Of a stretch of DNA of 56,378 nt, positions 1,185 through 16,600 are shown one piece after another (the stretch's first letter is position 1; each line of letters begins with the position of its first letter). The stretch spans positions 1 through 56,378 of IMG/VR virus record IMGVR_UViG_3300017779_000007; one strand, given 5' to 3'. The position numbers and the translations under genes are program-made. The notes beneath the pieces are model-generated. The model was not told where the DNA came from. It saw only the letters and a list, made by a program, of their open reading frames with translations, and did not search any database. The stretch comes from a virus (taxonomy: Duplodnaviria > Caudoviricetes).

Positions 1185-3418
1185 TATTCTTGTTCACGAA
1201 ACTTCAAGGCGGCTTGCGCGTCGCGGATCGCTTGCTCTTGGTCGAACTTCTGTTGCTTGATAGCCATGTCTAGTTCGGCCTTCTGCTGCGTGATCTGCAT
1301 ATCGACTTGCGCCTTCTGTAGCTTCATGTCTACCTCAGACATCTGAGGCTGTCCAGCACCATCTTCAGAAATTTGCTGTTGCTGTTGCTGCTGTTCTCTC
1401 TGAATCTTTTCCAACGCCTTCATGGTGTTGTTGATCGCCTCTTCGGCATACTGGAGAATCTGCTTGGCGTTTCCGACCACGGCCCCCAATGCAGGGTCAC
1501 CGGATGCGTATTGAGCGGTCTCGGAAATGTGCTGGTAGAGTGCCTGCAACGCCGGAAGAACCTGCTGCGGATCTGCTTGGCCTTCGTTGATAGCCTGAAT
1601 GAACTGCTGCAACAGCGGGACGTGCAACTGCAAGTGCTGGCCGTGTAGCTCGCTGGAGACAACAGGAACCTGCTGACCCTGCTGCAACTGCTGGTTCTCA
1701 AGGTAAGCGATCTTGGTATCTACCGTCTGTCTCTCCGACTCTTGTGCCGGAACGTAGCGATCCGCGAGGTCGTGGCCGACACGAGTGCTAACGATGTCAC
1801 GAGTAAGGTTGCGGCGACCAACGTCGTCGAATTGGCCACTAATGCCTTGAAGCTCGCGAAGCGAGACGAGTCTGTTTGCGTGCGATCCATTACCAATGGA
1901 ACGAACTGCTTTGGTCTGTGCGACATCTAATTTTTGAATGAATTCTTTCTCTACGCCCCGCTTCTCGCAGCGGTCGAAGAAATCTTTAATCGCCGCATCA
2001 GGCCGCTTGACCTGAACAATACGGCGGACCATCTCGCGCATCAGGCGAGTCCAACTTGAGTAGAATAGGTTAAGCGTTGAACCACTAATCCTTGTAGCGA
2101 CATCCATGTCCGCTACCACCTGCATCTTGTTCTTGTATGGCGAAGTCTGATTCGGGCCATACGGCGACATCGTATCAGTGTTGAGGTTCAACTGCTGAGT
2201 GAGATCCTGCAAAGCTGGCTGGACTGCGGTTCCTAAGTTAGGAATAGCCTTCTCAACGATCTTCACGTTAGGCGACATCACGGCATACGCTCCGTAGAAG
2301 GTAAAGCTGAGTTCGTCTAGTGAGCGTTGGTTCTCAGGCTGAATCATAACAGCCGACGCCAACATTGCGCCGTCGATCTGCTGGCATCGTAACCTGTTAC
2401 TGGTCTGGATGTGGGAGAAGATCCGCTGGCCGAGACCTCTGATCGAATGATAAGTGCCGTTACTGCCTACTCCGTAAGTGAAGAAGATGTACGCCTGTTC
2501 AGGCGAATCGTAGCGGCTGACCTTTTTGTAGAGGAAATCTTTAGGACTGGACTCAGCGGATATGTAATGACTCACGCTACCGTCGATCTCGCGTACCCAG
2601 TAGTGCAGCACGTCAACGGTAGGGTTCTGGATGCCTGTGTAGAGATCGTTGTTCTTGATCTCTGCCTGCAACGCTTCGTAATCAGAGAATGTATTGCCGG
2701 ACGTGTAGGCGCGGCCAGAGGTCTTGACGTTCTCCATCATTACCCGCTTGACCTCTTTCACGTTCCAGCCGACCGCCTTAGCGGCCTTCTCGTTCTTAAT
2801 AAAGTGGTAGAGTTCGTGTAGCTGATACTGGCGGCGTCCTACCGCGATATCGATTGCGTTCTCTGATGCCTGTGACTGTCTCGGAATAAGAATGTCCGCG
2901 AAGCCGCCGACGCGGAACTTCCAGTCCTCCGGCGAGTCGAAGTAAGCGATCCCGACTCCGTGCTTAATAAACTGTGTGCAGAGACGGAGGTAGCTGCTGT
3001 GGAACTCCGGCCAGCGGCGGAAGAGATCCGTCAGCTCTTGCGCCACGATGTCCTCCTTTGGACCTACTTCGCTCCGCTCGCCTGTCGTGGCCTTGACCTC
3101 TACAAGACGCTCAAGAGAGGTGTAAAGGTCAACGTAGGCCGAAAGGGAGATGTCCAGCAGACGCTGCGCCTCTCCGAAGTTCAGGTTGGTCTTGAGTCCC
3201 TGACCACTGGCCGCTAACTGTGATTGGCTATAAGGTGCGACGCCGTCGAACATACTGTCGATCCGAGAGCGGTTCACGGCAGACTTCTCGTCGGCGCGGA
3301 GCAAGGTTGCAAAAATACCTACGGCGGCTTTTACATCCTTGAGACGTGTTTTGACGGGTTTGCCCTTATCATCTAGGCTCCCTAAATCGAGGCCGTCTAA
3401 GTCAATTAAGTTTGACAT
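1184..3418 (-). CDS. Portal protein (about 744 aa from ATG 3418; track start 3454)
   Basis: Size, position at the head of the scaffold/capsid block, and long Gln-rich C-terminal coiled coil reminiscent of P22-type portal barrels. Confidence 0.7.
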   Translation of the reverse strand: MSNLIDLDGLDLGSLDDKGKPVKTRLKDVKAAVGIFATLLRADEKSAVNRSRIDSMFDGVAPYSQSQLAASGQGLKTNLNFGEAQRLLDISLSAYVDLYTSLERLVEVKATTGERSEVGPKEDIVAQELTDLFRRWPEFHSSYLRLCTQFIKHGVGIAYFDSPEDWKFRVGGFADILIPRQSQASENAIDIAVGRRQYQLHELYHFIKNEKAAKAVGWNVKEVKRVMMENVKTSGRAYTSGNTFSDYEALQAEIKNNDLYTGIQNPTVDVLHYWVREIDGSVSHYISAESSPKDFLYKKVSRYDSPEQAYIFFTYGVGSNGTYHSIRGLGQRIFSHIQTSNRLRCQQIDGAMLASAVMIQPENQRSLDELSFTFYGAYAVMSPNVKIVEKAIPNLGTAVQPALQDLTQQLNLNTDTMSPYGPNQTSPYKNKMQVVADMDVATRISGSTLNLFYSSWTRLMREMVRRIVQVKRPDAAIKDFFDRCEKRGVEKEFIQKLDVAQTKAVRSIGNGSHANRLVSLRELQGISGQFDDVGRRNLTRDIVSTRVGHDLADRYVPAQESERQTVDTKIAYLENQQLQQGQQVPVVSSELHGQHLQLHVPLLQQFIQAINEGQADPQQVLPALQALYQHISETAQYASGDPALGAVVGNAKQILQYAEEAINNTMKALEKIQREQQQQQQQISEDGAGQPQMSEVDMKLQKAQVDMQITQQKAELDMAIKQQKFDQEQAIRDAQAALKFREQE

Positions 3419-3426
3419 ACTTGGCG

Positions 3427-3454
3427 AGTATATTGGTTTGGCGCGTAATGTCAA
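3427..3454 (-). promoter_or_regulatory. Sigma70-type promoter for portal
   Basis: Minus strand TTGACA(3454-3449)-16 bp-TATACT(3432-3427), 8 nt before ATG 3418. Confidence 0.65.
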
Positions 3455-3891
3455 TCATTTGGGTAAGCCTCCTCCATAATCTTCTCCATCCGTACCCAGT
3501 GGGCGCGACCGTCTCTAGTCTTGAGACGGACGTATTCTTTCTTTCCGAAGTCCTTAGTATGCACTAAGAAGGGGACGCCCCTGTATTTTTTGCCTGTGTT
3601 CTGGTATTTCCAGACGGCTCCGTAAGGCGTTACCTTGTAATCGGGATAGTCGGCTACCACCACGAACTCCTCGTCCGGTAAGCCGTGTCGGACTACAGTC
3701 GGGTTGTCGTGGTTAACCTTTCTATACACACCGTCGTCATCAGTAACAAAGGAATGATGTTTTAGGCTCTGCCAATACCGCTTAATCTTTTTGTCGGTTT
3801 TAAGGTTGTAGATGTAATCGTCGTCGGTCAGGGCGTAGTGGGACGCTCCTTCAACGGGTGTCCAGTCTTCTGGTATGTGGTGTTTGGTCAT
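3451..3891 (-). CDS. Tandem NUMOD4-like DNA-binding protein without nuclease domain
   Basis: Two E.W/F..V.G/DY..Y.(L/V)T motifs (EDWTPVEGASHYALT; EEFVVVADYPDYKVTPYG); no HNH motif. Confidence 0.5.
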   Translation of the reverse strand: MTKHHIPEDWTPVEGASHYALTDDDYIYNLKTDKKIKRYWQSLKHHSFVTDDDGVYRKVNHDNPTVVRHGLPDEEFVVVADYPDYKVTPYGAVWKYQNTGKKYRGVPFLVHTKDFGKKEYVRLKTRDGRAHWVRMEKIMEEAYPND

Positions 3892-3904
3892 GTCGGAAGT
3901 CGGT

Positions 3905-3984
3905 AAAAAAAACTTTTCTCTGAGGCTCTTAGTACCTTATAATATATTATAAGGTACTATACGTCTAGGAAAAAAGTTTTTTTT
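3905..3984. repeat. 80-bp palindromic element, copy 1
   Basis: AAAAAAAACTTTT-12 nt-TAGTACCTTATAATA|TATTATAAGGTACTA (perfect 30-bp palindrome, 3930-3959)-12 nt-AAAAGTTTTTTTT. Confidence 0.95.
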
Positions 3985-4023
3985 CGTAGTTTAGGTGCGG
4001 GTTTTCCAGCACTCCATTCCCTT

Positions 4024-4101
4024 AAAAAAAACTTTTCTCTGAGGCTCTTAGTATCTTATAATATATTATAAGGTACTATACGTCTGGGAAAAAAGTTTTT
4101 T
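4024..4101. repeat. 80-bp palindromic element, copy 2 (direct to copy 1, period 119 bp)
   Basis: Near identical to copy 1, with one C>T change in the core. Confidence 0.95.
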
Positions 4102-4360
4102 ATTGGATTTTAAGTGCCGCTTTTCTAGCATTACGTTTTGCCATGATTTTAGCTTTGTTTTTGCGATAATACTCTTTGTTGTAATTCTTTACGCGATTCT
4201 TGAACGCCTCATACTCCTCCGGTTCAAGGACTTTTGCCACCTCCAATTTCCGAGAGTAGCTGTATTTTGTCTTACGGTAATACTCATTTTGGTAGTCGAG
4301 CCTCTTTTCCCGATTCTTCAAATAGTATTCCTTCTTCTTTTTTGGGTCGTAATTCGCCAT
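4100..4360 (-). CDS. Small Lys/Arg/Tyr-rich basic protein (86 aa)
   Basis: MANYDPKKKKEYYLKNREK...EYYRKNKAKI; promoter directly upstream. Confidence 0.65.
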   Translation of the reverse strand: MANYDPKKKKEYYLKNREKRLDYQNEYYRKTKYSYSRKLEVAKVLEPEEYEAFKNRVKNYNKEYYRKNKAKIMAKRNARKAALKIQ

Positions 4361-4365
4361 GCCCA

Positions 4366-4394
4366 ACTCTAGCCGAAAGCCAGACCCCCGTCAA
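4366..4394 (-). promoter_or_regulatory. Sigma70-type promoter, likely leaderless transcript
   Basis: TTGACG-17 bp-TAGAGT, 5 nt before ATG 4360. Confidence 0.55.
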
Positions 4395-4622
4395 TTTTTT
4401 TCTAAATGGTATATTGTATACACTGCACTCCGTGCAAAAATCCGAGACCTACCGGTGGCGTCTCCCGAACCCCGAACCCCAAATCACTATCATACTATCA
4501 TGATCAACGCATCACGATACGACGATGCGTTAGTAGTGGTGAGGGATCAGGGAAGCGGGATTCATGAATCAGGAATCAGGTGTCGGTGGATCGGAAGGAA
4601 GGCGGGGCATTGCTCTGCATCA

Positions 4623-4846
4623 GGTCCAGTGTCCGGTGTCCAGTGTCCGGTCTGGTGTCCGGTCTGGTGTCCGGTGTCCAGTGTCCGGTCTGGTGTCCGG
4701 TCTGGTGTCCGGTGTCCAGTGTCCGGTCTGGTGTCTGGTGTCTAGTGTCTGGTGTCCAGTGTCCGGTCTGGTGTCCGGTCTGGTGTCCGGTGTCCAGTGT
4801 CCGGTCTGGTGTCTGGTGTCTAGTGTCTGGTGTCTGGTGTCTGGTG
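4623..4846 (+). repeat. Tandem array of GTGTCYR heptamers with GTCTG pentamers
   Basis: Units GTGTCCG/GTGTCCA/GTGTCTG/GTGTCTA/GTCTG; 78-bp higher-order duplication 4674-4751 = 4752-4829. Confidence 0.95.
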
Positions 4847-4849
4847 TTC

Positions 4850-4884
4850 CCCGCTTCCCGCTTCCCGCTTCCCGCTTCCCGCTT
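4850..4884 (+). repeat. (CCCGCTT)5 heptamer array
   Basis: Five perfect copies; reverse complement GGGAAGCGGGA at 4550-4560. Confidence 0.95.
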
Positions 4885-5186
4885 CCCTTATCATGATTAC
4901 TGAATATCGAAAAAAGATTCGATTGTGCTTGCAATAGGTCAATTCCTTTTCTTGGCCCTCAGATGCGATCTGAGAGCGTTTGCCCCCGTCCGGCTGGTCC
5001 TATTCAATTTCTTTTCGAAACGCGATCCTGAGCGATTCGATGTTCTGTTGAACAGTGAAAAGGGTGTTCAAAACTTTGCCTTTATATAGTGTGTTTTTTG
5101 AGGGGCAGCCGGAACATCGAGAAGGGGTTGATTGGTAAGGGATTAGGGTGATCGGTGAAAAAAGAAAAGAATTTGACCGATTTAGC

Positions 5187-5215
5187 TTGCAGAAAGTAAA
5201 CCGTTATTTTAGTTT
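5187..5215 (+). promoter_or_regulatory. Putative early promoter
   Basis: TTGCAG-17 bp-TAGTTT with A-rich upstream tract; first plus-strand genes follow. Confidence 0.5.
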
Positions 5216-5223
5216 CTAGTCAT

Positions 5224-5276
5224 CGCCACAACGGCGTGAGTTGAGTCCACCGACCGACTGCCCCGATCTTTGAAAT
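5224..5276 (+). promoter_or_regulatory. boxB-like hairpin plus boxA-like antitermination motif
   Basis: CGCC-ACAAC-GGCG at 5224-5236; GATCTTTGAAAT at 5265-5276 resembles rRNA-leader boxA. Confidence 0.45.
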
Positions 5277-5330
5277 CACAGAATAGTTTAAGCGTCTTTT
5301 AAATAGCACGGGCCGACATTGGCCCGTTCC

Positions 5331-5395
5331 GCTATTCCCCGCTTCGGCGGGGCATAGCTCACAGCCTCCGGCCATGCCGGAAGTTGCGAGCTATG
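5331..5395 (+). ncRNA. Structured leader element, family 1, copy 1
   Basis: GCTAT-T-CCCCGC-TTCG-GCGGGG-C-ATAGC hairpin overlapping a second hairpin CATAGCTC...GAGCTATG that contains the ATG. Confidence 0.7.
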
Positions 5396-5740
5396 ACAAA
5401 ACAAGAACAAATAGACATCGTTAGAAACGCAGCACAATCTCTCAACGGAACCCTGATGGGAGATTGGCTCGATGAATCGGTTGCCCAAGCCGCCTCTGCA
5501 TTGGACTCTGACATCAATCCAGCAATTTGGGTTCATGGAATAGAAGAGGCAGTCGCGGTGAAGACATCTACCAAGGTCGCCGAAATACAAGCCTCCTTTG
5601 AAAAACGGGAAGCTGAACTAGCCAAGCGGGAAAGAGACTTCGAAAAGCGCGAATCCGACTTCGAACATTGGAGAGCGGACTTCCACAACACCGTCACCAA
5701 GACGGCCTCCCATCTGGAGTATGTGATCGATCACCTCTAA
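5393..5740 (+). CDS. Early hypothetical protein with coiled coil
   Basis: ORF; ATG 5393 at the end of the structured element. Confidence 0.75.
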   Translation: MTKQEQIDIVRNAAQSLNGTLMGDWLDESVAQAASALDSDINPAIWVHGIEEAVAVKTSTKVAEIQASFEKREAELAKRERDFEKRESDFEHWRADFHNTVTKTASHLEYVIDHL

Positions 5741-5748
5741 CCCTAACC

Positions 5749-5813
5749 GCTACACCCCGCTCCGGCGGGGCGTAGCTCTCAGCTACCGGAAAGATCGGTG
5801 GTTGAGAGCTATG
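5749..5813 (+). ncRNA. Structured leader element, family 1, copy 2
   Basis: Same architecture with compensatory change GCTAT/ATAGC to GCTAC/GTAGC. Confidence 0.7.
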
Positions 5814-6167
5814 AGTAATACTACCACAAAGCAAGACGTGTCCGCCCCTACTGTTGAATTCCTCGCCATCACCGGATTCGGCTGGGCCTATGCTGACTCG
5901 CCAGCGATGGCGATTCAGAAAGCGCAATCGAATATCTCCTACGGGGCGAAGCCTCGTAAGGGATCGAAGAAATGGGAGGAGGCTCAAGACAAAATCCATC
6001 TCTGGATGGTTCCCTCCACTTGGCACGGGACTGACAACTACAGGCCCATCGATGAAGACGGCAACCCTGTTGGAATCCTCCTCCACGGCCATTACAAGCC
6101 CGAAGATAAAACGGCCCAATATGAGGTCATGGACTCGGCCATCAAAGGATGGTTGGAAAACAGATAA
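5811..6167 (+). CDS. Early hypothetical protein
   Basis: ORF; ATG 5811 at the end of the structured element. Confidence 0.75.
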   Translation: MSNTTTKQDVSAPTVEFLAITGFGWAYADSPAMAIQKAQSNISYGAKPRKGSKKWEEAQDKIHLWMVPSTWHGTDNYRPIDEDGNPVGILLHGHYKPEDKTAQYEVMDSAIKGWLENR

Positions 6168-6188
6168 CCCTGAACCCTGAACCCTGAA
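6168..6188 (+). repeat. (CCCTGAA)3 after stop codon
   Basis: Direct reading; same unit at 6404-6417 and 8910-8937. Confidence 0.9.
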
Positions 6189-6190
6189 CA

Positions 6191-6403
6191 ATGAAGATTA
6201 AAAAATGGATCGTAAACTTGAATGGCCAACACCACACCGTCACAGGTGATTGCGATGGGCATTTGGAAATTCACATCAGCCACGAGGATGGAACTCCTGT
6301 TTACGCTCTTGAGCGCGACATGGAAACGCCAAACGGATGGTTAGATTCCTTCACATCAGAAGGCATAGAAGGGAACTACCGTAAAAAAATCATCAACCAC
6401 TAA
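6191..6403 (+). CDS. Early hypothetical protein (70 aa)
   Basis: ORF bounded by CCCTGAA repeats. Confidence 0.7.
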   Translation: MKIKKWIVNLNGQHHTVTGDCDGHLEIHISHEDGTPVYALERDMETPNGWLDSFTSEGIEGNYRKKIINH

Positions 6404-6410
6404 CCCTGAA

Positions 6411-6475
6411 CCCTGAACCCCTGCACCATGCAAGACGCATGGTGCAGTATTCAGGGGTCACAACGACCCACTGAA
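6411..6475 (+). ncRNA. Structured intergenic element, family 2, copy A
   Basis: CCCTGAA-ccc-11 bp stem-ta-TTCAGGG then second hairpin ending CTGAA. Confidence 0.7.
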
Positions 6476-6508
6476 ACAGAACCAATAAACCAATAGAAAG
6501 AAAAAACT

Positions 6509-7552
6509 ATGTCACATCAAATTACAGAAATCGACACCGTGTTATGTCCTGAAGGTTCCAAGTATCGCACTTGGCACGGGCTAGAGCAAACATCAGCAAA
6601 GCCGATCACGTTGGAAGTCGCGAGGGATCACGATCTCTTGCCCGTTGTCCGAAAGTCTCCGATTCATGTAGCGGGTAATCACCCGCCGATTGAGAACTTC
6701 AAAGCCCTGACAACGTGGGACAAGAACGGTGAGCTGACCACGCTCGACGTGGTCTCTGACCGATACTCGATCATTCAGAACGAGCAGATATTCAAGACCA
6801 TGTCCGAGTCCTTCAAGGGGACAGGACTGGAATACACTCTGTCCTGCATCGGCACGTTGGGTGGCTTGAAGAAGTTCTTCATCTCGGTCGCCGTAGGCGA
6901 TGACGATGGCGGGTTCACCGTCAACGGTGATAAGTTTCACGGCAACGTGAACTTCAACACCTCACATGATGGAGGATCGTTCTTCGCCAACGACAGTCTA
7001 ACCCGAATCGTATGCGGGAACACACTCCGGCAAAGCATGAACGGAGATAAAAACGTGTCATTCAAGATCAGGCACAAGGGCGATACCGCCAGCAAGGGTA
7101 AGGATCTTAGTCGCTACCTTCAGGCAGTCTTCACCTCTCGCGAAGTATTCGCCGAGAACATGGGCAAGCTGGCTGAACAGCGAGTAGCTGGCGATGACAT
7201 CAAGCAGATCGTCGGTGGCTTCTTTGTGAAAGAAGCATTCAAGCGTGGCGAAAAGCTGGAGGAGGGTTTCAAGACCCGCTCGCTCAACATGATCGACGGG
7301 ATCACTGACCTCGCCATCTCCGGTCGCGGAAACAGTGGACGGTCTCTCTATGATGCCCTCAACGGAGCGACTGAGTTTTGGACGAGTGGTGACGGCGTAG
7401 GCCGGACAGCGAGTGCCGGAAAGAAAGCCTACTCTTCCGAATTCGGAAACGCTGCTGCCAGCAAGGAGAAGTTCTCCGAGTATCTCGTCAAAGGCGAGTT
7501 TGAATCCTCGCTTCAGGAGGATACAAAGCGCATCCTCGCCCTCACTTCCTAG
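6509..7552 (+). CDS. DUF932/DUF945-family phage/plasmid protein
   Basis: Motifs WHGL, VVSDRY.IIQN, SHDG, RIVC.NTL, IRH.G, LYDALN.ATE. Confidence 0.8.
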   Translation: MSHQITEIDTVLCPEGSKYRTWHGLEQTSAKPITLEVARDHDLLPVVRKSPIHVAGNHPPIENFKALTTWDKNGELTTLDVVSDRYSIIQNEQIFKTMSESFKGTGLEYTLSCIGTLGGLKKFFISVAVGDDDGGFTVNGDKFHGNVNFNTSHDGGSFFANDSLTRIVCGNTLRQSMNGDKNVSFKIRHKGDTASKGKDLSRYLQAVFTSREVFAENMGKLAEQRVAGDDIKQIVGGFFVKEAFKRGEKLEEGFKTRSLNMIDGITDLAISGRGNSGRSLYDALNGATEFWTSGDGVGRTASAGKKAYSSEFGNAAASKEKFSEYLVKGEFESSLQEDTKRILALTS

Positions 7553-7556
7553 TGAG

Positions 7557-7612
7557 TCTTGATACACTGCCCCCTCCAGCCGGAGGGGGCAGTAATCAGG
7601 AATGAGCCTGAA
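7557..7612 (+). ncRNA. Structured intergenic element, family 2, copy B
   Basis: TCTTGAT-aca-CTGCCCCCTCC-agcc-GGAGGGGGCAG-ta-ATCAGG-aatgag-CCTGAA. Confidence 0.7.
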
Positions 7613-7634
7613 ATTAAACCAATAAAGAATAAAG

Positions 7635-7793
7635 ATGAAATTCGACAAACTAAGACAGAAACTCGGCATGATCAATCCAGAAACCCTGACCGATGTCCTC
7701 GATGGAAAGATAAAATTAAGTCATGAGGAAAGAGAGGAATTCAATGAATACATGGACATGGGCCGGAGAATGTTCGCAAAAAAGAAATCCTAA
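7635..7793 (+). CDS. Small early protein (52 aa), not in ORF track
   Basis: MKFDKLRQKLGMINPETLTDVLDGKIKLSHEEREEFNEYMDMGRRMFAKKKS, filling the gap between elements B and C. Confidence 0.7.
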   Translation: MKFDKLRQKLGMINPETLTDVLDGKIKLSHEEREEFNEYMDMGRRMFAKKKS

Positions 7794-7799
7794 ACCGGA

Positions 7800-7855
7800 T
7801 CTTGATACACTGCCCCCTCCAATCGGAGGGGGTAGTAATCAGGAATCAGCCTGAA
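7800..7855 (+). ncRNA. Structured intergenic element, family 2, copy C
   Basis: Near-identical to copy B; differences fall in loops or keep G-U pairing. Confidence 0.7.
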
Positions 7856-7873
7856 CTTAAACCCTAAAAATAA

Positions 7874-8386
7874 ATGAGAGAAATAATCGAAGTAAAAGGG
7901 AACTGCACCCTCAAAAAGCAGGGAGGTCGCTACGTCATGACTAACGACTCAACAGGTGCTTGTCATAGCATCTCGGCCCGACCGGACATCAGCCCTCTTA
8001 AGAGGCTGGTGGCCCACTGGGAATCGTTCCTCAAATTACAACTCGATGGAATCGAGTTAAAAGACCTGAACGCTTCCACTCTGAAGGAAGCGTTGAGAGA
8101 GGCAAAGATGGTCGCCCTCGATAACGGAGACGGTGGGGACTACTGCCAGACGGCGGGACAACTCGTCCTTGTAGACTCAGACGGTGAGCGGATCGGTGGG
8201 GGGCCAAGCGTCTACTTTGACGGTCAACCTAAATTGCGAGACATCCGCGAGCTGTTTGAAGACCACCCCAAAGCCGTGACCGTGTCTGTCGAAGGACAAA
8301 CCCGCTGGTATGGTGAGGGGAACGCTGCCCAGCGTTTCGAGGACTCCGAGATCTGCGACTGGTGGGTATTGAACATCGTCCGATAA
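7874..8386 (+). CDS. Early hypothetical protein (170 aa)
   Basis: ORF with A-rich leader. Confidence 0.75.
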   Translation: MREIIEVKGNCTLKKQGGRYVMTNDSTGACHSISARPDISPLKRLVAHWESFLKLQLDGIELKDLNASTLKEALREAKMVALDNGDGGDYCQTAGQLVLVDSDGERIGGGPSVYFDGQPKLRDIRELFEDHPKAVTVSVEGQTRWYGEGNAAQRFEDSEICDWWVLNIVR

Positions 8387-8406
8387 CTTTAACCCTAAAA
8401 CTAAAT

Positions 8407-8634
8407 ATGTATAAGTATACCACAACTGAGCTTCAATCGCTCCCACCGTCATTCGGCGGCAATAATGATTACGGTTGCGAGACCGTCACCTGCTTCTCGC
8501 CTTCTCCTAAGAAGGCGGTAGCGATGGAGGGAACCATCACCCGCTCCCGTGAGGGAGTCGAGGGCGTTCCCGTCCTCCTGAATGCGACCCTAGTCGCCCC
8601 CAACGGTCGAGTCGTTTTCGACCGTTGGGATTAA
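8407..8634 (+). CDS. Early hypothetical protein (75 aa from ATG 8407)
   Basis: ORF track 8362..8634; the internal ATG avoids overlap with the upstream gene. Confidence 0.6.
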   Translation: MYKYTTTELQSLPPSFGGNNDYGCETVTCFSPSPKKAVAMEGTITRSREGVEGVPVLLNATLVAPNGRVVFDRWD

Positions 8635-8651
8635 CCAACAACTAAGCCAGT

Positions 8652-8915
8652 ATGAAAACCGAACAATGCCAAGCCTTTTGGCGAAACAAAAAAGGCGCGT
8701 GTTGCTTGGCCACCTTCCCATCATCCGAGCTTCCTGAGTTTGTGATGAAACGGTGGCGGCAGCGTCAGGAGTGCGATGTTTACTACGTCAAAGATCAAGA
8801 GATTCCGCTTGATGAACACGGTTATCGGGACATCGAATACCGTGCCGGAAAAGTATGGAAGCTCGACGATGGGAGTGATCGTTGGGACTATTACTACGAC
8901 TTCGATGAACCCTGA
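8652..8915 (+). CDS. Early hypothetical protein (87 aa)
   Basis: ORF; stop lies within the first CCCTGAA unit. Confidence 0.7.
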   Translation: MKTEQCQAFWRNKKGACCLATFPSSELPEFVMKRWRQRQECDVYYVKDQEIPLDEHGYRDIEYRAGKVWKLDDGSDRWDYYYDFDEP

Positions 8916-8931
8916 ACCCTGAACCCTGAAC

Positions 8932-8998
8932 CCTGAACCAGTGCGCCCTGTAGATGATACAGGGCGCACCATTCAGGAGTCATGAAGACTCTTATGAA
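8932..8998 (+). ncRNA. Structured intergenic element, family 2, copy D
   Basis: CCTGAA-cca-GTGCGCCCTGTA-gatga-TACAGGGCGCAC-ca-TTCAGG then hairpin GAGTC-atgaa-GACTC..TGAA. Confidence 0.7.
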
Positions 8999-9641
8999 CA
9001 AGAATAAAACTGTGAAAAAAATAAAAGAATACCCCGAAGGGGACATAATCGAGTCCGCACCTGTAAGGTCTGGCCGGACTGAGTTGGAATACTACAAACT
9101 ACACCTATGGGCATATTCCGATGGAACATACACCATTGGTGATGATGACGGTGACCATGAGGAAGCTGATAAAGAGGATGTGGAGGAGTTCTTGAGGCTA
9201 TCGCCTCAACGACACAGGGCGTATGATGACTACGTTGCCGAGACCGGAGAAGACCCCTGCGAATTATACTTCGTTGCTCGAAAGCGTGAGGTCAATCAAC
9301 GTGTGGAGTTACACCTGCAAAACTACGTAGGGGCATCCGAGTTTGGATTGCGCCTAAGAAAGGTAACGCTCCCCAACGGTGAGGATATTACACCCGCCCA
9401 ATGCCTCGCCGATCACCCAAAATTGGCTGAGTTTATTGAGCTTAAAAAACAGGAGTCGGGACACTTCATCTTGGATGAGGTAAACGAGCAGGTGCTTCGG
9501 GAATGCCCCGAAGTAGAGGAGTGGCAGGATTATCTCAGCACCGTGTTCGTGAATGCTGTCTGGGATGAGCCGATCCCTGAAGAGGAACTGCGCGTCACGC
9601 TCCGAGAGAAGGCGAAAAAATCACTAGAAAGTAACCGATAA
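8982..9641 (+). CDS. Acidic early hypothetical protein (219 aa)
   Basis: ORF track; start uncertain (8982/8994/9012). Confidence 0.75.
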   Translation: MKTLMNKNKTVKKIKEYPEGDIIESAPVRSGRTELEYYKLHLWAYSDGTYTIGDDDGDHEEADKEDVEEFLRLSPQRHRAYDDYVAETGEDPCELYFVARKREVNQRVELHLQNYVGASEFGLRLRKVTLPNGEDITPAQCLADHPKLAEFIELKKQESGHFILDEVNEQVLRECPEVEEWQDYLSTVFVNAVWDEPIPEEELRVTLREKAKKSLESNR

Positions 9642-9657
9642 GCAATAAACCAAGATT

Positions 9658-9831
9658 ATGATTAAAGAAAAATACCTAGTGACAATATATCAAGAAACTT
9701 ACACTACTGTTGAAGTGGAAGCAAACGATAAGCATGAAGCAGAAGACCTTGCTCTTATGGGAGAAGGCAAAGTTGATGACGTTACGATCAAAGATTCAGA
9801 AGTGATAACCAATAAACCAATAAACCAATGA
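9658..9831 (+). CDS. Small protein (57 aa), DpnD/PcfM-like pattern
   Basis: MIKEKYLVTIYQETYTTVEVEANDKHEAEDLA...; not in ORF track; ATGA overlap with next gene. Confidence 0.6.
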   Translation: MIKEKYLVTIYQETYTTVEVEANDKHEAEDLALMGEGKVDDVTIKDSEVITNKPINQ

Positions 9832-9950
9832 GCAAAACTCAGTTAGTAATCGCGTCCACGATCTTTCTCGTTGCCGTGTATTCAATCCACGCCGTCGGTG
9901 GCATCGATACCATCGTCCGACGACTAATCTCCACGATATTTGAACTATGA
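9828..9950 (+). CDS. Small membrane protein (40 aa)
   Basis: MSKTQLVIASTIFLVAVYSIHAVGGIDTIVRRLISTIFEL; ATGA overlaps on both sides. Confidence 0.6.
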   Translation: MSKTQLVIASTIFLVAVYSIHAVGGIDTIVRRLISTIFEL

Positions 9951-10090
9951 ATTATTTAGAAATCGTCGGAGTTATATTAGCCACGCCTCTGATCGTCATA
10001 GTCATCGCCGCGAGCATGATCAAGTCGGAAGCTCGCCGGATCGAGAAACTGAAGCAGCGTGCCGATAGGAAGAAAGGGAGGCGTTCATGA
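9947..10090 (+). CDS. Small membrane protein with basic tail (47 aa)
   Basis: MNYLEIVGVILATPLIVIVIAASMIKSEARRIEKLKQRADRKKGRRS; ATGA overlaps on both sides. Confidence 0.65.
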   Translation: MNYLEIVGVILATPLIVIVIAASMIKSEARRIEKLKQRADRKKGRRS

Positions 10091-10527
10091 TCTACTTCAC
10101 CGACACCGACCCCGACGAGGCAGCGAGCAATCTCTGCGACCGTCACCTGCGAAAGACCGTGAGATTCACCCAAAAAGTGTTCTCGGAAGCCGCTGAGAAT
10201 CGCACACAGCATCGCGACCCGTATGTCCGGTGGGGCTGTTCAAGTCTCACGAACTTAAAATGGGTCGTTGAACATGGAAACGCATCGGCTCATGAGCTTT
10301 ACTATCGATTCCACAAACCCGTCCGAATCGAAGACAGCCTGCCTTTGATCAGGGCCAGAGAGATGATGGACTCTCTGGCCCTCCCGCCCGTAGACCCCGA
10401 CCATATCTTCTTTCCTGATGAAATAGATAAGGTTAGGGAGTTTTACCGTTTAAAGGTTTTTCCAAAATCGAGATGGACAAGGCGATATCCGCCTGATTGG
10501 ATGCACCCGTCACTTCTGGTGAAGTGA
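10087..10527 (+). CDS. Pyrimidine-dimer DNA glycosylase/endonuclease V-like protein (divergent)
   Basis: M.YF.D.DP..AA..LCDRH..K, H..P...W...S..N..W...H......E...RF.K, YR.FY-like and WT.R..P.W tail. Confidence 0.65.
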   Translation: MIYFTDTDPDEAASNLCDRHLRKTVRFTQKVFSEAAENRTQHRDPYVRWGCSSLTNLKWVVEHGNASAHELYYRFHKPVRIEDSLPLIRAREMMDSLALPPVDPDHIFFPDEIDKVREFYRLKVFPKSRWTRRYPPDWMHPSLLVK

Positions 10528-10545
10528 CTTGTTTATTCATAGCAC

Positions 10546-10580
10546 AAGGAGGTAGGGAGAAATCCCTGCCTCCTTTTTTT
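10546..10580 (+). terminator. Intrinsic terminator of early region
   Basis: GGAGGTAGGGA-GAAA-TCCCTGCCTCC followed by T7. Confidence 0.85.
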
Positions 10581-10652
10581 GTGCCTAGAAATAAGTGGGA
10601 AAAACCGCCCAGAAATCCCCCACTTACTATCATAGTTTAATCCACGCAAGCT

Positions 10653-13600
10653 CTACTCAGATTCTGTAATAGGCCGGACAGGAATGTAGCGGTTGAGCTT
10701 TGAGGCGTGGTCGTAGACCTGCTGCGCTCGCGCCCTACCATATTCATCAGTCCTTGGGTCGAGCAGACCCTCGATAATGTATTTGAACGACGGCTTGTCC
10801 ATGTAACCTTTACTCAGTAGAGCGACCCGATCTCGACCCAGCTTCTTATCCTTCATCCCCTTGAGGAGGTCGGTGTTAGTGAGTCCGAGAGAGGCGAACC
10901 CTTTATTGATCCGCATCAGTTCGTAGTTAAGGAGGCGTCGATCCTCGATGTTCTCATCGATGATGTCCGCTACATCTCCGTCGCTCATCGGGACGTTACG
11001 CTTCACCGCGTTGAGTCCGCTCTTCACGTTGTTGTATCGCTTGTTTAGATCCAGCAGGTATCGCGAATACTGTTTCTGGAGATCAACATCATGAACACGC
11101 GCAGGCATCGCGCCGTCCATAATCTCAAGAGTCATGCCCTTCAGAGATCCGGTTGACCAGCCCTCGACAAAATCTTTACCAAGTCGCGGAGCGTATGCCT
11201 CCTTGGCGATGTAACCTAAGATCTTCGATCCAGCTTCCACCGGACCATCGGCCCCCTTATTCCAAATTGGTTTACCCGTTGACGGGTTAAGGTTTCGGCG
11301 AGCCTCAGACACTGCTCCCGCGAGAATCTGATCGTCTAAGTATTGATCCCTCACCAAGCCTAGCGCGAGAGCGGCTCCCGCTTCGGTGAACTCACCGCTG
11401 CGGATGTTCTCATACGCTCGCAGGAATGGATCGACCAGTAGCGAGTATGGATTAACGTAAGTAAGGTCAACCGACTTCAGCTCACCGTTCCATCTGTAAT
11501 AGAAGAACGTATGCCCTCTGAGGTAATCTGGAATGGATGCACGCATGGCCTCGTCCTCCTCATCTCCGATGCCCGAAAGAGCAGCGAGGATCATAGGAAG
11601 AGCGGAAGAAAGAACTCCTATCGTTCCGGTCATCCAGATCATTCTAGTTTTACCTCTCCGAACCAGAACAGGATTGCCGCTGGCGATCTCCTCACTGGCG
11701 AGCTTGTACGTGTTGATCACGATTCGCGGAACCTCCATCTTGAATCGGATGAACGGGGCGAACAGCAGGCCGAGGCCAGACTTCGTGTATGCTGCGACGG
11801 CTGGCGGTGCTTGGCTGTATGCCTGTGAGGTCATGACTACCTTGCGAGCGGCCAGACGCTTGATCTGCGTGTCGCTCATATTGGCTAGGTTGTTGACCCT
11901 CACTTTGCCGTCCTCGACCGTGCTTGTGTCGGCGGCTTGGGCTTCCTTCAGAATTGCCAACTCATGGTTGTAGTAGGCGACCTTGTAGGCGGCGTCGAGA
12001 GCGGCGGATAAATCCTGTGCCTTCTTCTCAATTATCGCTAGAGCCTTAGTGGCTTTATTGAGTTTCGTCTTTTCACCTAAGTCTTCGATCTGCTTCCTGA
12101 TGCCGTCGGGTGTTATCCTACCGTTCAGGAGGTCTCTCATAACTCCGGCGCGGAGTTCGTCGCCCTTGATATTCAGGCCGATAAGCTCATTAAGCTCTGG
12201 GTCAATCTCACCTTCGTTAAATGGGTTTAACACGCCGAAAGTCCCTTTCGCCATTTCAGCGATCATCTTATCGTAGCGGAGAAATCCCTGTGAGGTTCCG
12301 AACAATAAGTTACCGATTCCGTTTCGTAAGTAGAATCCGATGGAGCCTAGAGTCTTAGCTGCCATTGCCTTACCGCTCAGGTTAGCGGCTAAACCAACAG
12401 CTCCCTTAACAGCCTTCTCCGCTGTGTCGGCGTAATCCATCGAGAAGGAGTCATTGAGCGTAGTATCCAGAAGCTTTTTGAATTCAGGATCTACCTGCAT
12501 TCCTGAGAGGGGGTCGTTCTTACTCGGCGCACCCGATCTGGCGGCGACGAAGTTAGCATACTTGACGCGGTTCTCTTTGGTAGCGAGCTTCTCTTCCACC
12601 GTGACCATGACGCCCGTTTCCTTGCCGAATGCCACCAGTTGGTTCAGGAATGCCTGCTGCGAAGCGAGTGTCGCGACGGTCGAGTAAGTCCGAAGAATCA
12701 AATCAGTGCCAGCCTCCGACCCGATTTCGCCGAGAAGATTTCGGATCTCCACCGGCAAATCTTTGCGTCTTTTCAGGTTGTCCTCGATCATCTTGTAATG
12801 TTTAGGCGAAGCAGTCGTCGAGTCTCTGCCTCCTTCGTCATACCGCATCAAGAAAGTGTTAAGCACCTCTTGCGCGTATGATTTATGTGGGTAGCTTTGG
12901 TTCTCTTTTTCGAGGAGTATACGAGCTTCAACCTCGGCACGCGACTTGTCCATGCCGCCCTCAACCAGCTCCTCAAACTTCTTATCTTTAAACTGTTTAT
13001 TAAAGAACCTCATAGCCTCGTCCCTCACAACTTGATAATTGGGATCTTCCCTCACCTTCTGGAGGTAAGACGAGTCGGTGAACATCTTATAACTACGGGT
13101 AATGTAGACTCCTCCGGTCTCAGAGATCTTGACTCCAATATTATCGTCAAGGCCCGACTTAACGAGTTTCTTCTGCAACGGGATGATCAGCCTCTGCCGT
13201 ATGTCGATAATGTGAGCGGCAAGCTTCGGAGATTCCTTAGCGAGTTCTCTCAGAGCGGCGTCGCGGTCAGCTTCCCTAGAAGTGATAGCCTCTTCGTAAG
13301 CTTTATCGGTGGCCTCAGTTCTCGCATTATGGGCGAGTCCCTTTAGGGAGTCAGCTTCTTCCTCAGTGATTAAGCCTACTTTGCGCTTCTTCTCTGCGTC
13401 GGCGTGCGCGGCTTCGTAATCTTTATCAATATCTTTAAGAACTTCCTCAGTGACTATGTTACCTGTGTAGTGTCCCTGCGCGAGAGCGATCAAATCCATC
13501 GGCGCGTATTCGTAACCGCCGTAGTTTTCCTCAATGAGTTTATCCATCTCCTGTTTATAGGCGACGACGTTAGCCTCAGTAAGTCTCTTGTAAGCGTCTC

Positions 13601-16600
13601 GGTTCTGGATTAATCGGCGGAAGGCTTCTGGAAGCTCGCCAGCGAACACCTTATTCAGGAACTCCATGATGAAGTTCTGTGGCTTTCCGGTCTCCAGCTC
13701 GTATACAGGAATCTCAAGGAGATCGACCACTGCGGCGAAGTTTATGGTCGAACCTGTCGGCTTGCTGGACGGAGCGGCTGCGGCTGCGGTGGGGGCTGAA
13801 TACAGAGGTAGTTTTACGGTCTCAACTCCCTCGTCCGCTTTTCTAAATATAAGTTCGCGTTGAGAAACACCAACGGACGGTGGGAAGATGCTGTCTTCCT
13901 CCGATTTTTTAATTGGGTCTGTGTTGCCGTCATATGGATCGGCTGCTTTTTTGGGGTTAGGTTTCTTAGCCGAGTAAACTACGTCTTTCCACAGGTTGGA
14001 CTCACTCAGAACGTGGACTACAGGTGTCTCACCCGAAGTGCTGCGTATAGAATACGGGTATGAGTCATGGAAGTCAGTCTCGACGGCTTCGACCTCTCCC
14101 TTCATCGAGAGAACAGCGTATACCCGCCCAGAGGCTTTCTTATCCATTTGCTGAAATTGCTGGAAGGTCTTGACCAGAGGCTCTGCAAAAAGATCTGCCA
14201 TGCCCTGCATGACTGATGCCATTTTGAGGTTACCTGTAGGTATTAAAGATTTATTGTATAGGTTCTTGTCACCAGCCAGAAGGTTAGCTATGTTCAAAGC
14301 CTGATTTTTCTTTTTATCGAAAGCAGCTTTTTCCTTTGGGTTGAACTTCTTCTGAACTTCCGCTGTAGGCAGTTTCATGCTGTCAGCTATTGCTGACGCT
14401 ATCTGAGCGACAAAGGAACCGCGTTGTGGGAACACTGACTCTTCAGGGAGGAGATTCTTTTTCATCTCCTCTATGTTTTTAGCCAGTCCGTCTTTCAGCT
14501 TCAGTTTCCTTGAAAATTCTTTGATGGTGGTCGTCTCGACTCCTGTATCTTTGTCTTTCTTTTTAAGAACTAATCTCTCTTTACTGGCGTTAACAATAGC
14601 ACGGTTTACGACCGCCTCAGTGATCCCATACTTCTTGGGGTTCTTGGCTAGAGTGGCGAACAGGTTGACCGCTCCCGTAGCCATTGTTGTGGAGCTAAAC
14701 ATCTTCTCGATGGGAGCGGACGTGAGAGCCATCAGAATAGTTCCGTTGTTGCGCTTGGATATCTTGTTAAGGTTTTCCGCCATGTTCACGGCGGCGTCCT
14801 TGGTAGATGCCCAGAAATACCCTTGGTCACCGAACATGACTGGGTAGTAAACACCTCCCTTGCCGTCTACGACCTTATCGCCCTCGACCTCCAGTGTGCC
14901 TGCCATCGCGCCGTCAGGTTGGTGGAGCATGACGGCCATTCCCTCAAACTGGTCGAGGGATTGCTGTATCTTAATGTATCCGTTCTTGATCTTCTCGTAA
15001 AACTTCCCGTCCTCTTTGACGTAGATATGTTTAACTATGGGGTCACTCGCACTGGCGATTTCTGGTGGGATCTCGGCGGGTGTAGTAGCACCAGCCACCG
15101 GAGCAGAGTAAAGGATACTGCTTTTACTTTCATCGAACCGCTGGCTAAGTGGGATCACGTTGCCGTTAGCGTCACGGGTGATAGGGTCTGCGGATTTGAG
15201 TTGATCGGGTGACCTTACGACAAGGTGTTCCGTGTCGTGAAAACTGAACGCTTCCTCCAAGTCCTCATAGGTTGTTATGGTCTCGTTCGGGTTGTTCTCA
15301 AGGTAGAGTTCCGCGCCCCCGAGAGCAGAGTCCTTTTTTATCACGAAGTAACCGGATCGTTCATTTTGTCCATCTAGCGACACAGGCTCCCCTTGGTCAA
15401 AATCCCGCTGCTGCTTCTGGGTAGGGAACCCAGCAGGTTCACTAAACACAACCGTATCGAACCCAGAAGGGAAGCCATCCGTCTCCTCTCCACGAGCCAC
15501 CATTTGTTGTGCTGTAACTCGATCAATGGTTCGTCCTTTCTTGACGAAAAGGTCGAGAACCTTGTTGTCGGTCCGCTGATATCTATAGGACGAAAATGTG
15601 TCGGCTTCATTCGATACATGAAAACCGCGAATATTGGTGTCTGGATCAAACTCAGGGATCTCGCCTCGGTCGAATGCGTCGAAGGTTGCTCCAGTTGCGT
15701 GTTTAGTGCGGGTTTCATACCCCGCTGCCTTAGCGCGTCGTTCCACCATCGTCCTCAACTCAAGCCAGTTCTTCTCAGGATCTTTGGCAAGCTCTAGATA
15801 CTCAACGTCTTCTACCGGAGCAGACGCTAAACCAACGAAGTCCTGATTAACGACCTCAAACATTTGGAAAACTTCCGTCGGGTTCTTGGTATCGAACGCC
15901 ATCTTCGTAGGCTGACGGACGAACCCAGCTTCGATAGCTCGCATCTCAATAATCAACTTATTGAGGGCAACATCTGCTGCGGGTCCGATCTGTTCACGCT
16001 TGGCGACCCATCGGTTGATGATCCCCCTAAAGTAACGACCTAGAATTTTAAGTAAGGAAGGCTTGGATTTCCAGAATTGGTTATCATCCTCGGTAGTAAA
16101 GCCCCGTGTGACCTTCTGGAAGTGCATACGAAGTTTCTCTTGTGCCAACCCATACTTAGCTTTTGCGACCACTTGAGGGTCTGACGACTGAAGGCTCACT
16201 ATCGCAGCCGCAAGTCTTGGTTCGTTTCCGACATGGTATTCTTTAGCGATGTCCACGAAGTCCGAGTCAGAAAGACTGTTGATGTAATTCTGAACCTCTC
16301 CGTCGGTCATGGAACTCCAACTGGCACTATGCACTAACTCCTCGTTGATTATAACACCAGCGATTGCGCGTCCGGCGATGTCCCCAACGCCGCCTGTCTG
16401 GCTCAACATAAGAGGGAGGTTGATATATACCGCTGAAGAATCAGACTGCACAAAAGAAGAACTTCCATCGGACTCAGTAACAAATTCTAGTTCCATGCCG
16501 AATGGAATCAGACCTCTGAGATAATTCAGTAGGGGTAATGCTTTAGAGCGGTCTTCCTCTGGGATAAGTGAGAGGAATTTTTCGCGCTCTACCTCGTCTT

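Follow-up and report, generated by a model that had tools for sequence, protein, structure and literature searches.

How can a phage line up unrelated small genes in its early region, exchange them with related phages and still keep each of them expressible? This question is raised by an early-gene array of an uncultured marine phage, represented by a complete virus record of 56,378 bp (IMG/VR record IMGVR_UViG_3300017779_000007; Duplodnaviria, Caudoviricetes), the whole of which was analysed here and is called the window below. Ahead of each of the first two genes of this array stands a copy of a repeated element that takes in the ATG of the gene. A first-pass annotation, made from the letters of the sequence, had described these copies as 65-nt units of a switch-like RNA able to sequester the start codon. 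We find that the element is a new RNA motif with an unusual layout, in which two adjoining hairpins, H1 and H2, fill the spacer between genes and the AUG of the downstream gene closes the base of H2. Its mechanism is something that we wholly infer; tentatively, we propose a translational gate that is opened by cleavage of the ribonuclease (RNase) III type.

Both copies were found where the first-pass annotation had placed them, each ending in ATG, but its estimate of their length holds only in part, for the conserved unit exceeds 65 nt and extends from the preceding stop codon as far as an A-rich tract some 12 nt beyond the ATG. H1 has the form CCCCGC-UYCG-GCGGGG in both copies and is adjoined, without a spacer, by H2 of about 19 bp, which starts with CRUAGC (a') and ends with GCUAUG (a''). 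A short segment upstream of H1, segment a, is a potential second partner for a'. The number of contiguous pairs in copy 2, earlier given as 13, is in fact 19. Minimum-energy folding gives -42.1 kcal/mol for copy 1 (z = -6.45) and -45.8 kcal/mol for copy 2 (z = -7.14), and 0 of 200 shuffles fold as well. A 24-nt degenerate core of the element matches the window exactly twice and has 0 matches in 100 dinucleotide shuffles. The positions of all parts are collected in Table 1.

Relatives of the element were gathered by scanning public collections with short degenerate motifs, which yielded 3 viral contigs, 26 metagenome stretches and 2 contigs from metagenome-assembled genomes (MAGs); single sources are named by L numbers where they must be told apart. 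A covariance model built from 10 copies was run over the sequence from these 31 sources and returned 143 matches at E up to 1, many of them weaker antisense images of the hairpin. Removal of overlaps with stronger matches left 72, of which 55 are distinct when flanks are counted. The ATG is kept in 54 of these 55, the remaining copy being cut at a contig end. Fifty-two copies could be parsed into H1 and H2, the other two being a 5'-truncated copy and one with an atypical H1 that the parser missed. The same two-hairpin architecture is present in 52 of 52 parsed copies, with the AUG paired in all of them. In general terms, the module measures about 75-90 nt and consists, after the preceding stop codon within UAACCCUAAC, of segment a (5 nt, GCUAY), a GC-rich H1 of 5-8 bp, H2 and about 12 nt of A-rich coding sequence. 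In two relatives that are 95-96% complete it is confined to the array.

The module does not belong to any family that we could recognise. Rfam 15 gave no match at the gathering score over the whole window and nine related loci (84,664 bases), and the four weak matches obtained at E up to 1 between positions 4000 and 11000 all lie outside the element. Literature searches, with supplementary files outside their scope, turned up a paper on the PeSL elements of T4-type phages and a review of T4, and no description of the element or of the phage group. The earlier view of a structured RNA element without a known family is thus borne out.

Covariation gives strong evidence for the fold. Pairs were counted on an alignment (A4) of 57 rows, 54 of them distinct, that was fitted to the model and in which one antisense row was retained. 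Over the distinct rows, 96.6% of cells are paired, compared with 34-47% when partners are slid by 1-3 columns, and changes on both sides are seen in 16 of 25 pairs (6 of 6 in H1 and 10 of 19 in H2); 0 of 500 shuffles reach any of the five measures used. Both the fitting of the alignment to the model and the common descent of the copies tilt these figures toward structure, but the margin is still large. H1 occurs with the unrelated sequences CCCCGC, GCCACC, GCGGA and GCAGCACC. The apex of H2 varies freely, from a 3-nt loop up to inserts of 30-70 nt, and its stem has fixed mismatch positions. No copy has an H2 of fewer than 16 bp; the stem spans 16-20 bp in 49 of 52, and the other three are longer and carry apex insertions. 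G.U cells number 122 and A.C cells 27 among the 53 distinct sense rows, and the H1 loop belongs to the UNCG class in 36 of 52 copies (UUCG 16, UCCG 15, UACG 3, CACG 2). The excess of G.U pairs together with the UNCG loops argues that it is the plus-strand RNA that folds, not duplex DNA or the template strand.

The base of the helix, with the AUG, behaves differently from the pairs above it. The UAGC/GCUA pairs are constant in 54 of 54 rows, and next to them stands a pair that is read as G.U in 31 rows and as A-U in 22 rows. Since the six a':a'' pairs barely vary, they provide no covariation evidence of their own, and it seems likely that they continue the helix that covaries directly above. 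The claim that the AUG is sequestered in a helix agrees with its pairing in every parsed copy and with covariation in the upper 13 pairs of that helix. Within the window, the start regions of the two cassette genes are the most stable among 39 ATG-start genes (-43.5 and -47.0 kcal/mol versus -3.3 to -36.9 kcal/mol for the other 37), and the unpaired probabilities of their AUGs, 0.004 and 0.080, rank 1 and 4. No Shine-Dalgarno motif is visible at any of the 44 listed gene starts of the window, whose leaders are A/C-rich, and the stem sequence before the AUG, GUUGWGAGCU, does not contain one. Where Shine-Dalgarno motifs are lacking, it should matter most that the AUG is free of structure.

Between the small genes of the hypervariable early-gene array, the module makes up the entire spacer. 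In 29 of 30 junctions, the end of the preceding stop codon is no more than 7 nt away from model position 1; the two coincide in 10 junctions, and in 6 the end falls six nucleotides later, at the second UAA of UAACCCUAAC. On the other side the module reaches into the gene, as the 12 nt after the AUG (+4 to +15) are 63% A compared with 41% in 37 other genes, and homologous proteins bear different first codons derived from the module. Arrays contain 2 to 5 modules per contig and are made up of the same protein families in other positions and beside other neighbours; the homologue of cassette gene 1 in L022, for instance, sits behind a different upstream context. The gene for a DUF932 protein always comes after the cassette array in the relatives. 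When the 52 copies from non-duplicate contigs are compared and a flank is counted as shared at an identity of at least 80%, 5 pairs share only the upstream flank, 7 share only the downstream gene and 0 share both, and the points at which similarity switches fall within the module or at its ATG. The cassettes are mosaic. This pattern suggests recombination between related phages through the conserved module, which would act as a homology patch. Such a role as a recombination linker is compatible with all of the RNA-level readings considered below and is the best-supported functional statement that we can make.

How the cassettes are transcribed can be read in part from the surrounding signals. 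A scan of 3800-10700 with a sigma-70-like consensus called no plus-strand site and five sites in all, each on the minus strand, versus 6.7 expected by chance; this negative is weak, since the host may use promoters of another type. A promoter-like block read by eye and missed by the scan (Table 1) is conserved upstream in L007, L019, L035 and L013. Neither H1 nor H2 is followed by a T run, and the terminator scan calls nothing at the element: H1 runs into H2, and H2 into AUGA and the A-rich tract. As the window has a canonical terminator at 10546-10575, the hairpins of the module are not the usual terminators of this phage. The lack of a plus-strand promoter call and the single strong terminator fit one polycistronic transcript from about 5157-5222, and the plus-strand operon probably starts near that block.

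Segment a offers a' an alternative to a''. At least 4 bp of a:a' pairing next to H1 are possible in 38 of 52 copies, compared with 8.5 copies on average and 17 at most when the flanks are shuffled (500 trials). At least 5 bp are possible in 27 of 52 copies, compared with 2.2 on average and 8 at most after shuffling. Two further copies, whose H1 had been mis-set by the parser, show the pairing when read by eye. It is retained beside three unrelated H1 sequences in shifted registers (GCUAC, CUAUG and GUUAUG). Relative to the closed form, the open form loses 1.5-9.1 kcal/mol in stability (n = 38, median 5.0), with 4.2 for window copy 1 and 1.7 for copy 2. When the 3' strand of H2 is removed from the RNA, the a:a' helix is part of the minimum-energy fold in 32 of 38 copies. 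The three-segment competition put forward in the first-pass annotation thus survives in part: the pairing exists in both window copies and is enriched in the family, but it never forms the minimum-energy fold of the intact module, is without significant covariation and is lacking in some copies. The companion idea of a kinetic timer appears unlikely, because strand exchange over 5-6 bp beside a preformed helix should equilibrate far faster than ribosomes load. A further suggestion, that the module is a putative processing site, is plausible.

We propose, as a tentative reading that may well prove right, that the module is a translational gate opened by RNase III-type cleavage, with segment a as the displacing and tuning strand, and that it serves as a recombination linker as well. 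In its default state the module would keep the AUG of each cassette shut. Opening would result chiefly from cleavage of the long H2 duplex by a host RNase of the RNase III type, specific for double strands. After the cut, segment a would zip onto a', extending H1 and ousting the short leftover 3' strand, so that the upstream message would end in a stable UNCG-capped hairpin of 11-12 bp and the downstream cistron would begin a few nucleotides before a free AUG and the A-rich tract. In uncut RNA, a:a' pairing may provide a minor open conformer and with it a low basal translation that differs from cassette to cassette. At the DNA level, the module would be the homology patch through which related phages exchange cassettes. 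We favor a cut by RNase III because H2 is kept at 16-20 bp, which is far beyond what hiding the AUG would need. In bacterial messages, RNase III generally acts on long perfect duplexes, and the classical examples of its action, as in T7 and SP82, are hairpins repeated between the early genes of phages.

Comparison with these systems is instructive. At the RNase III sites of T7 and T3 and the processing hairpins of SP82, cleavage separates cistrons, leaves a protective hairpin on the upstream message and sometimes frees an occluded start. The module resembles them in being a conserved hairpin repeated in the spacers of an early polycistronic region, with one copy ahead of the first gene. In those phages, however, the start codon and ribosome-binding site lie downstream of the hairpin, whereas here the AUG makes up the last three pairs of the stem, a Shine-Dalgarno sequence is absent, a clamp hairpin and a competitor segment are present, and cleavage is only proposed. 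A different likeness is to the start-site-sequestering hairpins of T4 (lysozyme gene e, soc, I-TevI), in which a stable hairpin in read-through transcripts hides initiation and translation needs RNA that lacks the 5' half of the stem. Those hairpins serve single genes and are relieved by an internal late promoter, whereas the module is a portable repeat before many unrelated genes. A mobE hairpin of T4-type phages appears in the reference list of PMC3014915.

Several observations weigh against our proposal. Segment a is weak or missing (at most 3 bp) in 14 of 52 copies, three that are first in their array among these. A count over fixed columns finds 78.2% of the a:a' cells paired and a change on both sides in only 1 of 5 pairs, and covariation between R in a' and Y in a (counts 8/4 vs 8/15) is not significant (Fisher p = 0.09), the regular expression used mis-assigning a few rows. 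The length of 16-20 bp is near the short end of the range of RNase III hairpin substrates, for which about two turns of double-stranded RNA are sought; H2 adjoins the 5-8 bp of H1, which might stack on it. Because the copies are related by descent and recombination, significance against shuffles overstates their independence. Finally, the near-invariant a':a'' pairs fit recognition by a protein equally well.

A rival model, that of the first-pass annotation, needs no cleavage. If the module were a self-contained switch or tuner, competition among a, a' and a'' would fix the fraction of free AUG, the energy gap between the two forms would set the translation rate of each cassette, and H1 and the upper part of H2 would only be clamps that hold the competing strands near each other. 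The enrichment of segment a (38 of 52 copies versus 8.5 expected) and its persistence in shifted registers beside three unrelated H1 sequences favor this idea, and some copies, window copy 2 among them, have an energy gap low enough to matter, the lowest being 1.5 kcal/mol. Invariance of UAGC/GCUA is what would be expected of a segment with two alternative partners. In addition, an ATAGC upstream of copy 1 is able to occupy segment a, much as in a four-segment attenuator; when 5300-5420 is folded, the minimum-energy structure has AAUAGC paired with GCUAUU around the hairpin at 5309-5326, and this arrangement is kept in L019 and L035 with compensatory changes in the hairpin. We consider such a tuner somewhat unlikely, however, given that a median gap of 5.0 kcal/mol would leave roughly 1 molecule in several thousand open, that the 14 copies without a usable segment a would never open, that a:a' does not covary significantly, that 13 further H2 pairs at a near-fixed length would go unexplained, and that neither a ligand pocket nor a trigger is evident. 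No riboswitch-type sensor is evident either, as apart from the two plain hairpins no domain is conserved, and both the apex and the loops vary. A variant of the cleavage reading, which we hold to be distinctly unlikely, would make the module a portable cistron insulator: a cut by a structure-specific nuclease at or near the base of H2 would free each cassette, independently of the genes beside it, as a standard message with no leader or almost none, starting at the AUG and followed by an A-rich landing tract for the ribosome, while a:a' and H1 would seal the upstream message. It is also conceivable, if improbable, that a trans-acting RNA-binding protein of the phage or the host recognises the CRUAGC/GCUAUG duplex or the junction of H1 and H2 and switches the cassettes off or on together. 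Within the module, invariance is confined to the duplex around the AUG (54 of 54 rows), the rest being free to covary, and as a feature common to all cassettes this duplex would suit coordinate control; coat proteins of RNA phages, too, bind a hairpin that holds the replicase AUG. Yet the AUG is occluded already without a protein, and the Pfam scan of 45 window open reading frames (ORFs), most of which have no family, found no RNA-binding or RegA-like family. The RegA operators of T4, as presented in the passages of PMC3014915 consulted here, likewise place a shared signal over the AUG of many early messages, about 30 in number, but those sites are described there as unstructured and A+U-rich, whereas the module is a strong GC-rich duplex.

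Other readings place the function in the DNA. The module might be mainly a linker of the PeSL type that serves shuffling and carries transcription signals unrecognisable for this host, the pairing of the AUG being incidental. The mosaic breakpoints, which fall inside the module or at its edge, the differences in gene content and order among the arrays of relatives, and a terminator-like hairpin just 5' of the first module in several relatives all suit this idea, as does a more distant relative, L008 (= G004; DUF932 protein 50% identical), in which another repeat of seven copies, with hairpins and a conserved promoter-like motif, occupies the same place (1680-4960). According to the portions of Arbiol, Comeau and Krisch 2010 (PMC2839356) on which we draw, PeSLs are conserved elements of about 100 nt that extend from the stop codon of an orphan gene to the next start in the hyperplastic early region, join a strong sigma-70 promoter, a terminator stem-loop and, at the end, a Shine-Dalgarno sequence to the start codon, and recombine with each other. 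The module is like them in that a stable GC-rich stem-loop spans stop to start in a hypervariable early region and the genes flanking its copies are shuffled; it differs from PeSLs as portrayed there in having no recognisable promoter or Shine-Dalgarno sequence, in its two hairpins and in its paired AUG. That the module is mainly such a linker seems quite improbable to us, since no plus-strand -35/-10-like site is called and no T run follows the hairpins, the prevalence of G.U over A.C and the UNCG loops indicate selection on RNA and not on duplex DNA, and recombination alone would neither keep compensatory pairing in a variable apex nor put the AUG in every helix. Scarcely credible is a site in folded single-stranded DNA, either one resembling the attC of integrons or a hairpin promoter of the N4 type that serves an injected polymerase. 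Like attC sites, the module forms imperfect hairpins with a conserved stem base, fixed mismatch positions and a variable apex between small promoterless cassettes in a one-directional array, and a folded attC in messenger RNA affects translation of the next cassette; a giant virion-type ORF also lies nearby. Unlike the situation in integrons, however, no tyrosine recombinase or integrase family was found among the 45 ORFs, the attC core motifs RYYYAAC and GTTRRRY are not present by eye, and the wobble pairs of the coding strand would become A.C mismatches in the template strand. Promoters of the N4 type have a 5-7 bp stem with a 3-nt loop on the template strand and are used by a virion RNA polymerase, whereas the H1 loops are 4-nt UNCG loops and the giant ORF resembles polyvalent proteins (a lead only) and lacks motif B in a crude motif scan. 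By analogy with the systems above, the gate that we propose may work like a blend of a T7-type processing site, a T4 sequestering hairpin and a T4 PeSL cassette. Translational bypassing, or hopping, across the module was rejected as well, because the sense codon that precedes the stop is not constant and, by eye, mismatches the GCU before the AUG.

Table 1. Features of the array locus and its surroundings in the window (positions in the 56,378-bp record)
Feature	Positions	Strand	Details and basis
Promoter-like block	5157-5222	+	A-rich tract, TTGCAG-17 nt-TAGTTT; read by eye, missed by consensus scan
ATAGC and upstream hairpin	5303-5326	+	ATAGC 5303-5307, able to pair with copy 1 segment a; hairpin CGGGCC-GACATT-GGCCCG 5309-5326
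Module copy 1	5322-5398	+	ATG 5393-5395
Copy 1 segment a	5331-5335	+	GCTAT, competitor strand for a'; sequence
Copy 1 H1	5337-5352	+	6 bp, CCCCGC-TTCG-GCGGGG (UUCG loop); fold, all 6 pairs covary family-wide
Copy 1 H2	5353-5395	+	a' CATAGC 5353-5358, a'' GCTATG 5390-5395; ATG forms the last three pairs
Cassette gene 1	5393-5740	+	115 aa; first codons ACA AAA CAA GAA form the A-rich module tail
Copy 2 5' edge	5738-5753	+	gene 1 stop TAA (5738-5740), CCCTAAC, segment a
Module copy 2	5740-5816	+	ATG 5811-5813
Copy 2 segment a	5749-5753	+	GCTAC; sequence
Copy 2 H1	5755-5770	+	6 bp, UCCG loop; fold, covariation
Copy 2 H2	5771-5813	+	19 contiguous pairs, ATG 5811-5813 in the base; fold, covariation
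Cassette gene 2	5811-6167	+	118 aa; homologues at other array positions in L007, L016 and L009
DUF932 protein gene	6509-7552		Pfam E = 8.8e-23
Intrinsic terminator	10546-10575	+	13-bp stem and T run; scan; directly after the last ORF of the block, only strong plus-strand one
3921-aa ORF	10653-22418	-	no family match

The record that contains these features has a G+C content of 49.7% and 0 tRNA genes, and its ends overlap over 123 bp. The Pfam scan recognised a DNA polymerase A, a helicase, a PD-(D/E)XK exonuclease, an amidase and glycosyltransferases among the 45 ORFs, and no RNA polymerase, integrase or ribonuclease family. A blastn search of 4500-10600 against phage records gave zero matches, and tblastn searches for cultured relatives with the DNA polymerase and the DUF932 protein gave matches that were all below 30% identity. 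To judge from these searches, the phage appears to belong to a lineage without a cultured relative. As to the host, the MAG contig L043 (392-1280) stems from a related phage with three modules and the same divergent 752-aa ORF and was binned in an 'uncultured Opitutae' MAG, which hints weakly at a verrucomicrobial host; the second MAG match, L042 (Xanthobacteraceae MAG), has no covariance-model match at E up to 1e-6. Pfam, PHROG, NCBIfam and PDB sequence searches with the 3921-aa ORF were without a match. The clusters closest to its C-terminal 2022 aa carry LPD38 and ART-PolyVal (language-model features, ESM atlas, score 0.96), a resemblance to 'polyvalent proteins' that we treat as a lead only. 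The ORF was also considered as a virion RNA polymerase, and this was rejected because it has no family match and a crude regular-expression scan with T7/N4-type motifs found no motif B.

Other repeats are found in and around the arrays. Ahead of the third gene of the window array (ATG 6191), a tract of AACCCTG heptamers replaces the hairpin module. Tracts of this kind stand directly after stop codons of the same operon at 6166-6190, 6402-6420 and 8908-8937 and are related to UAACCCUAAC at the 5' edge of the module. The DUF932 gene is preceded by a hairpin, CTGCACCATGC-loop-GCATGGTGCAG (6421-6446), which is kept in L006 (about 1719-1745) and L007 (about 2083-2110) with both sides of the stem changed. 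In L008, the repeat consists of a 23-nt palindrome, an ACCCC-loop-GGGGU hairpin, the motif CTGTCCTACTTAKACTAA and then an A/C-rich leader of about 25 nt, a layout that is more PeSL-like; its promoter-like motif is not present in the window. A GC-rich insert of about 330 nt separates the promoter-like block from the first module in L007 (100-430), is the same in L031 and L023, and is a different one in L021 and L022. The insert of L007 ends in a hairpin followed by TTTT, has no Rfam match and may be a non-coding RNA.

Further repeats of the window lie outside the array. Upstream of it, a divergent intergenic region holds two 115-nt direct repeats (3905-4101; 89% identical), which may represent an origin or operator; within each of them, TATAATATATTATA forms the centre of an almost perfect palindrome some 80 nt long. 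Some 230 nt of tandem 12/14-nt repeats, made of GTGTCCGGT and CTGGTGTCCGGT units and followed by five CCCGCTT heptamers, occupy 4620-4884 and have an imperfect inverted partner at 4537-4580. A second family of intergenic repeats, at 7557-7620 and 7800-7863, is 92% identical and forms a 12-bp GC-rich hairpin (ACTGCCCCCTCC...GGAGGGGGCAGT) in which no start codon is involved.

Arrays of early orphan genes are where phages tend to keep functions for host takeover and counter-defence, and how such genes remain expressible when they are shuffled is poorly understood outside T4. The module provides a simple sequence handle for finding cassette arrays of this kind in marine viromes. If it acts as an insulator, it would be the phage counterpart of the synthetic ribozyme or Csy4 insulators and a compact natural part for building operons, and it would explain how orphan early genes can be swapped freely in a host without Shine-Dalgarno pairing. 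More generally, a start codon held in a helix without Shine-Dalgarno pairing is a testable case of gated initiation, possibly activated by processing. The lineage of the window seems to use an RNA-level module in place of a promoter cassette.

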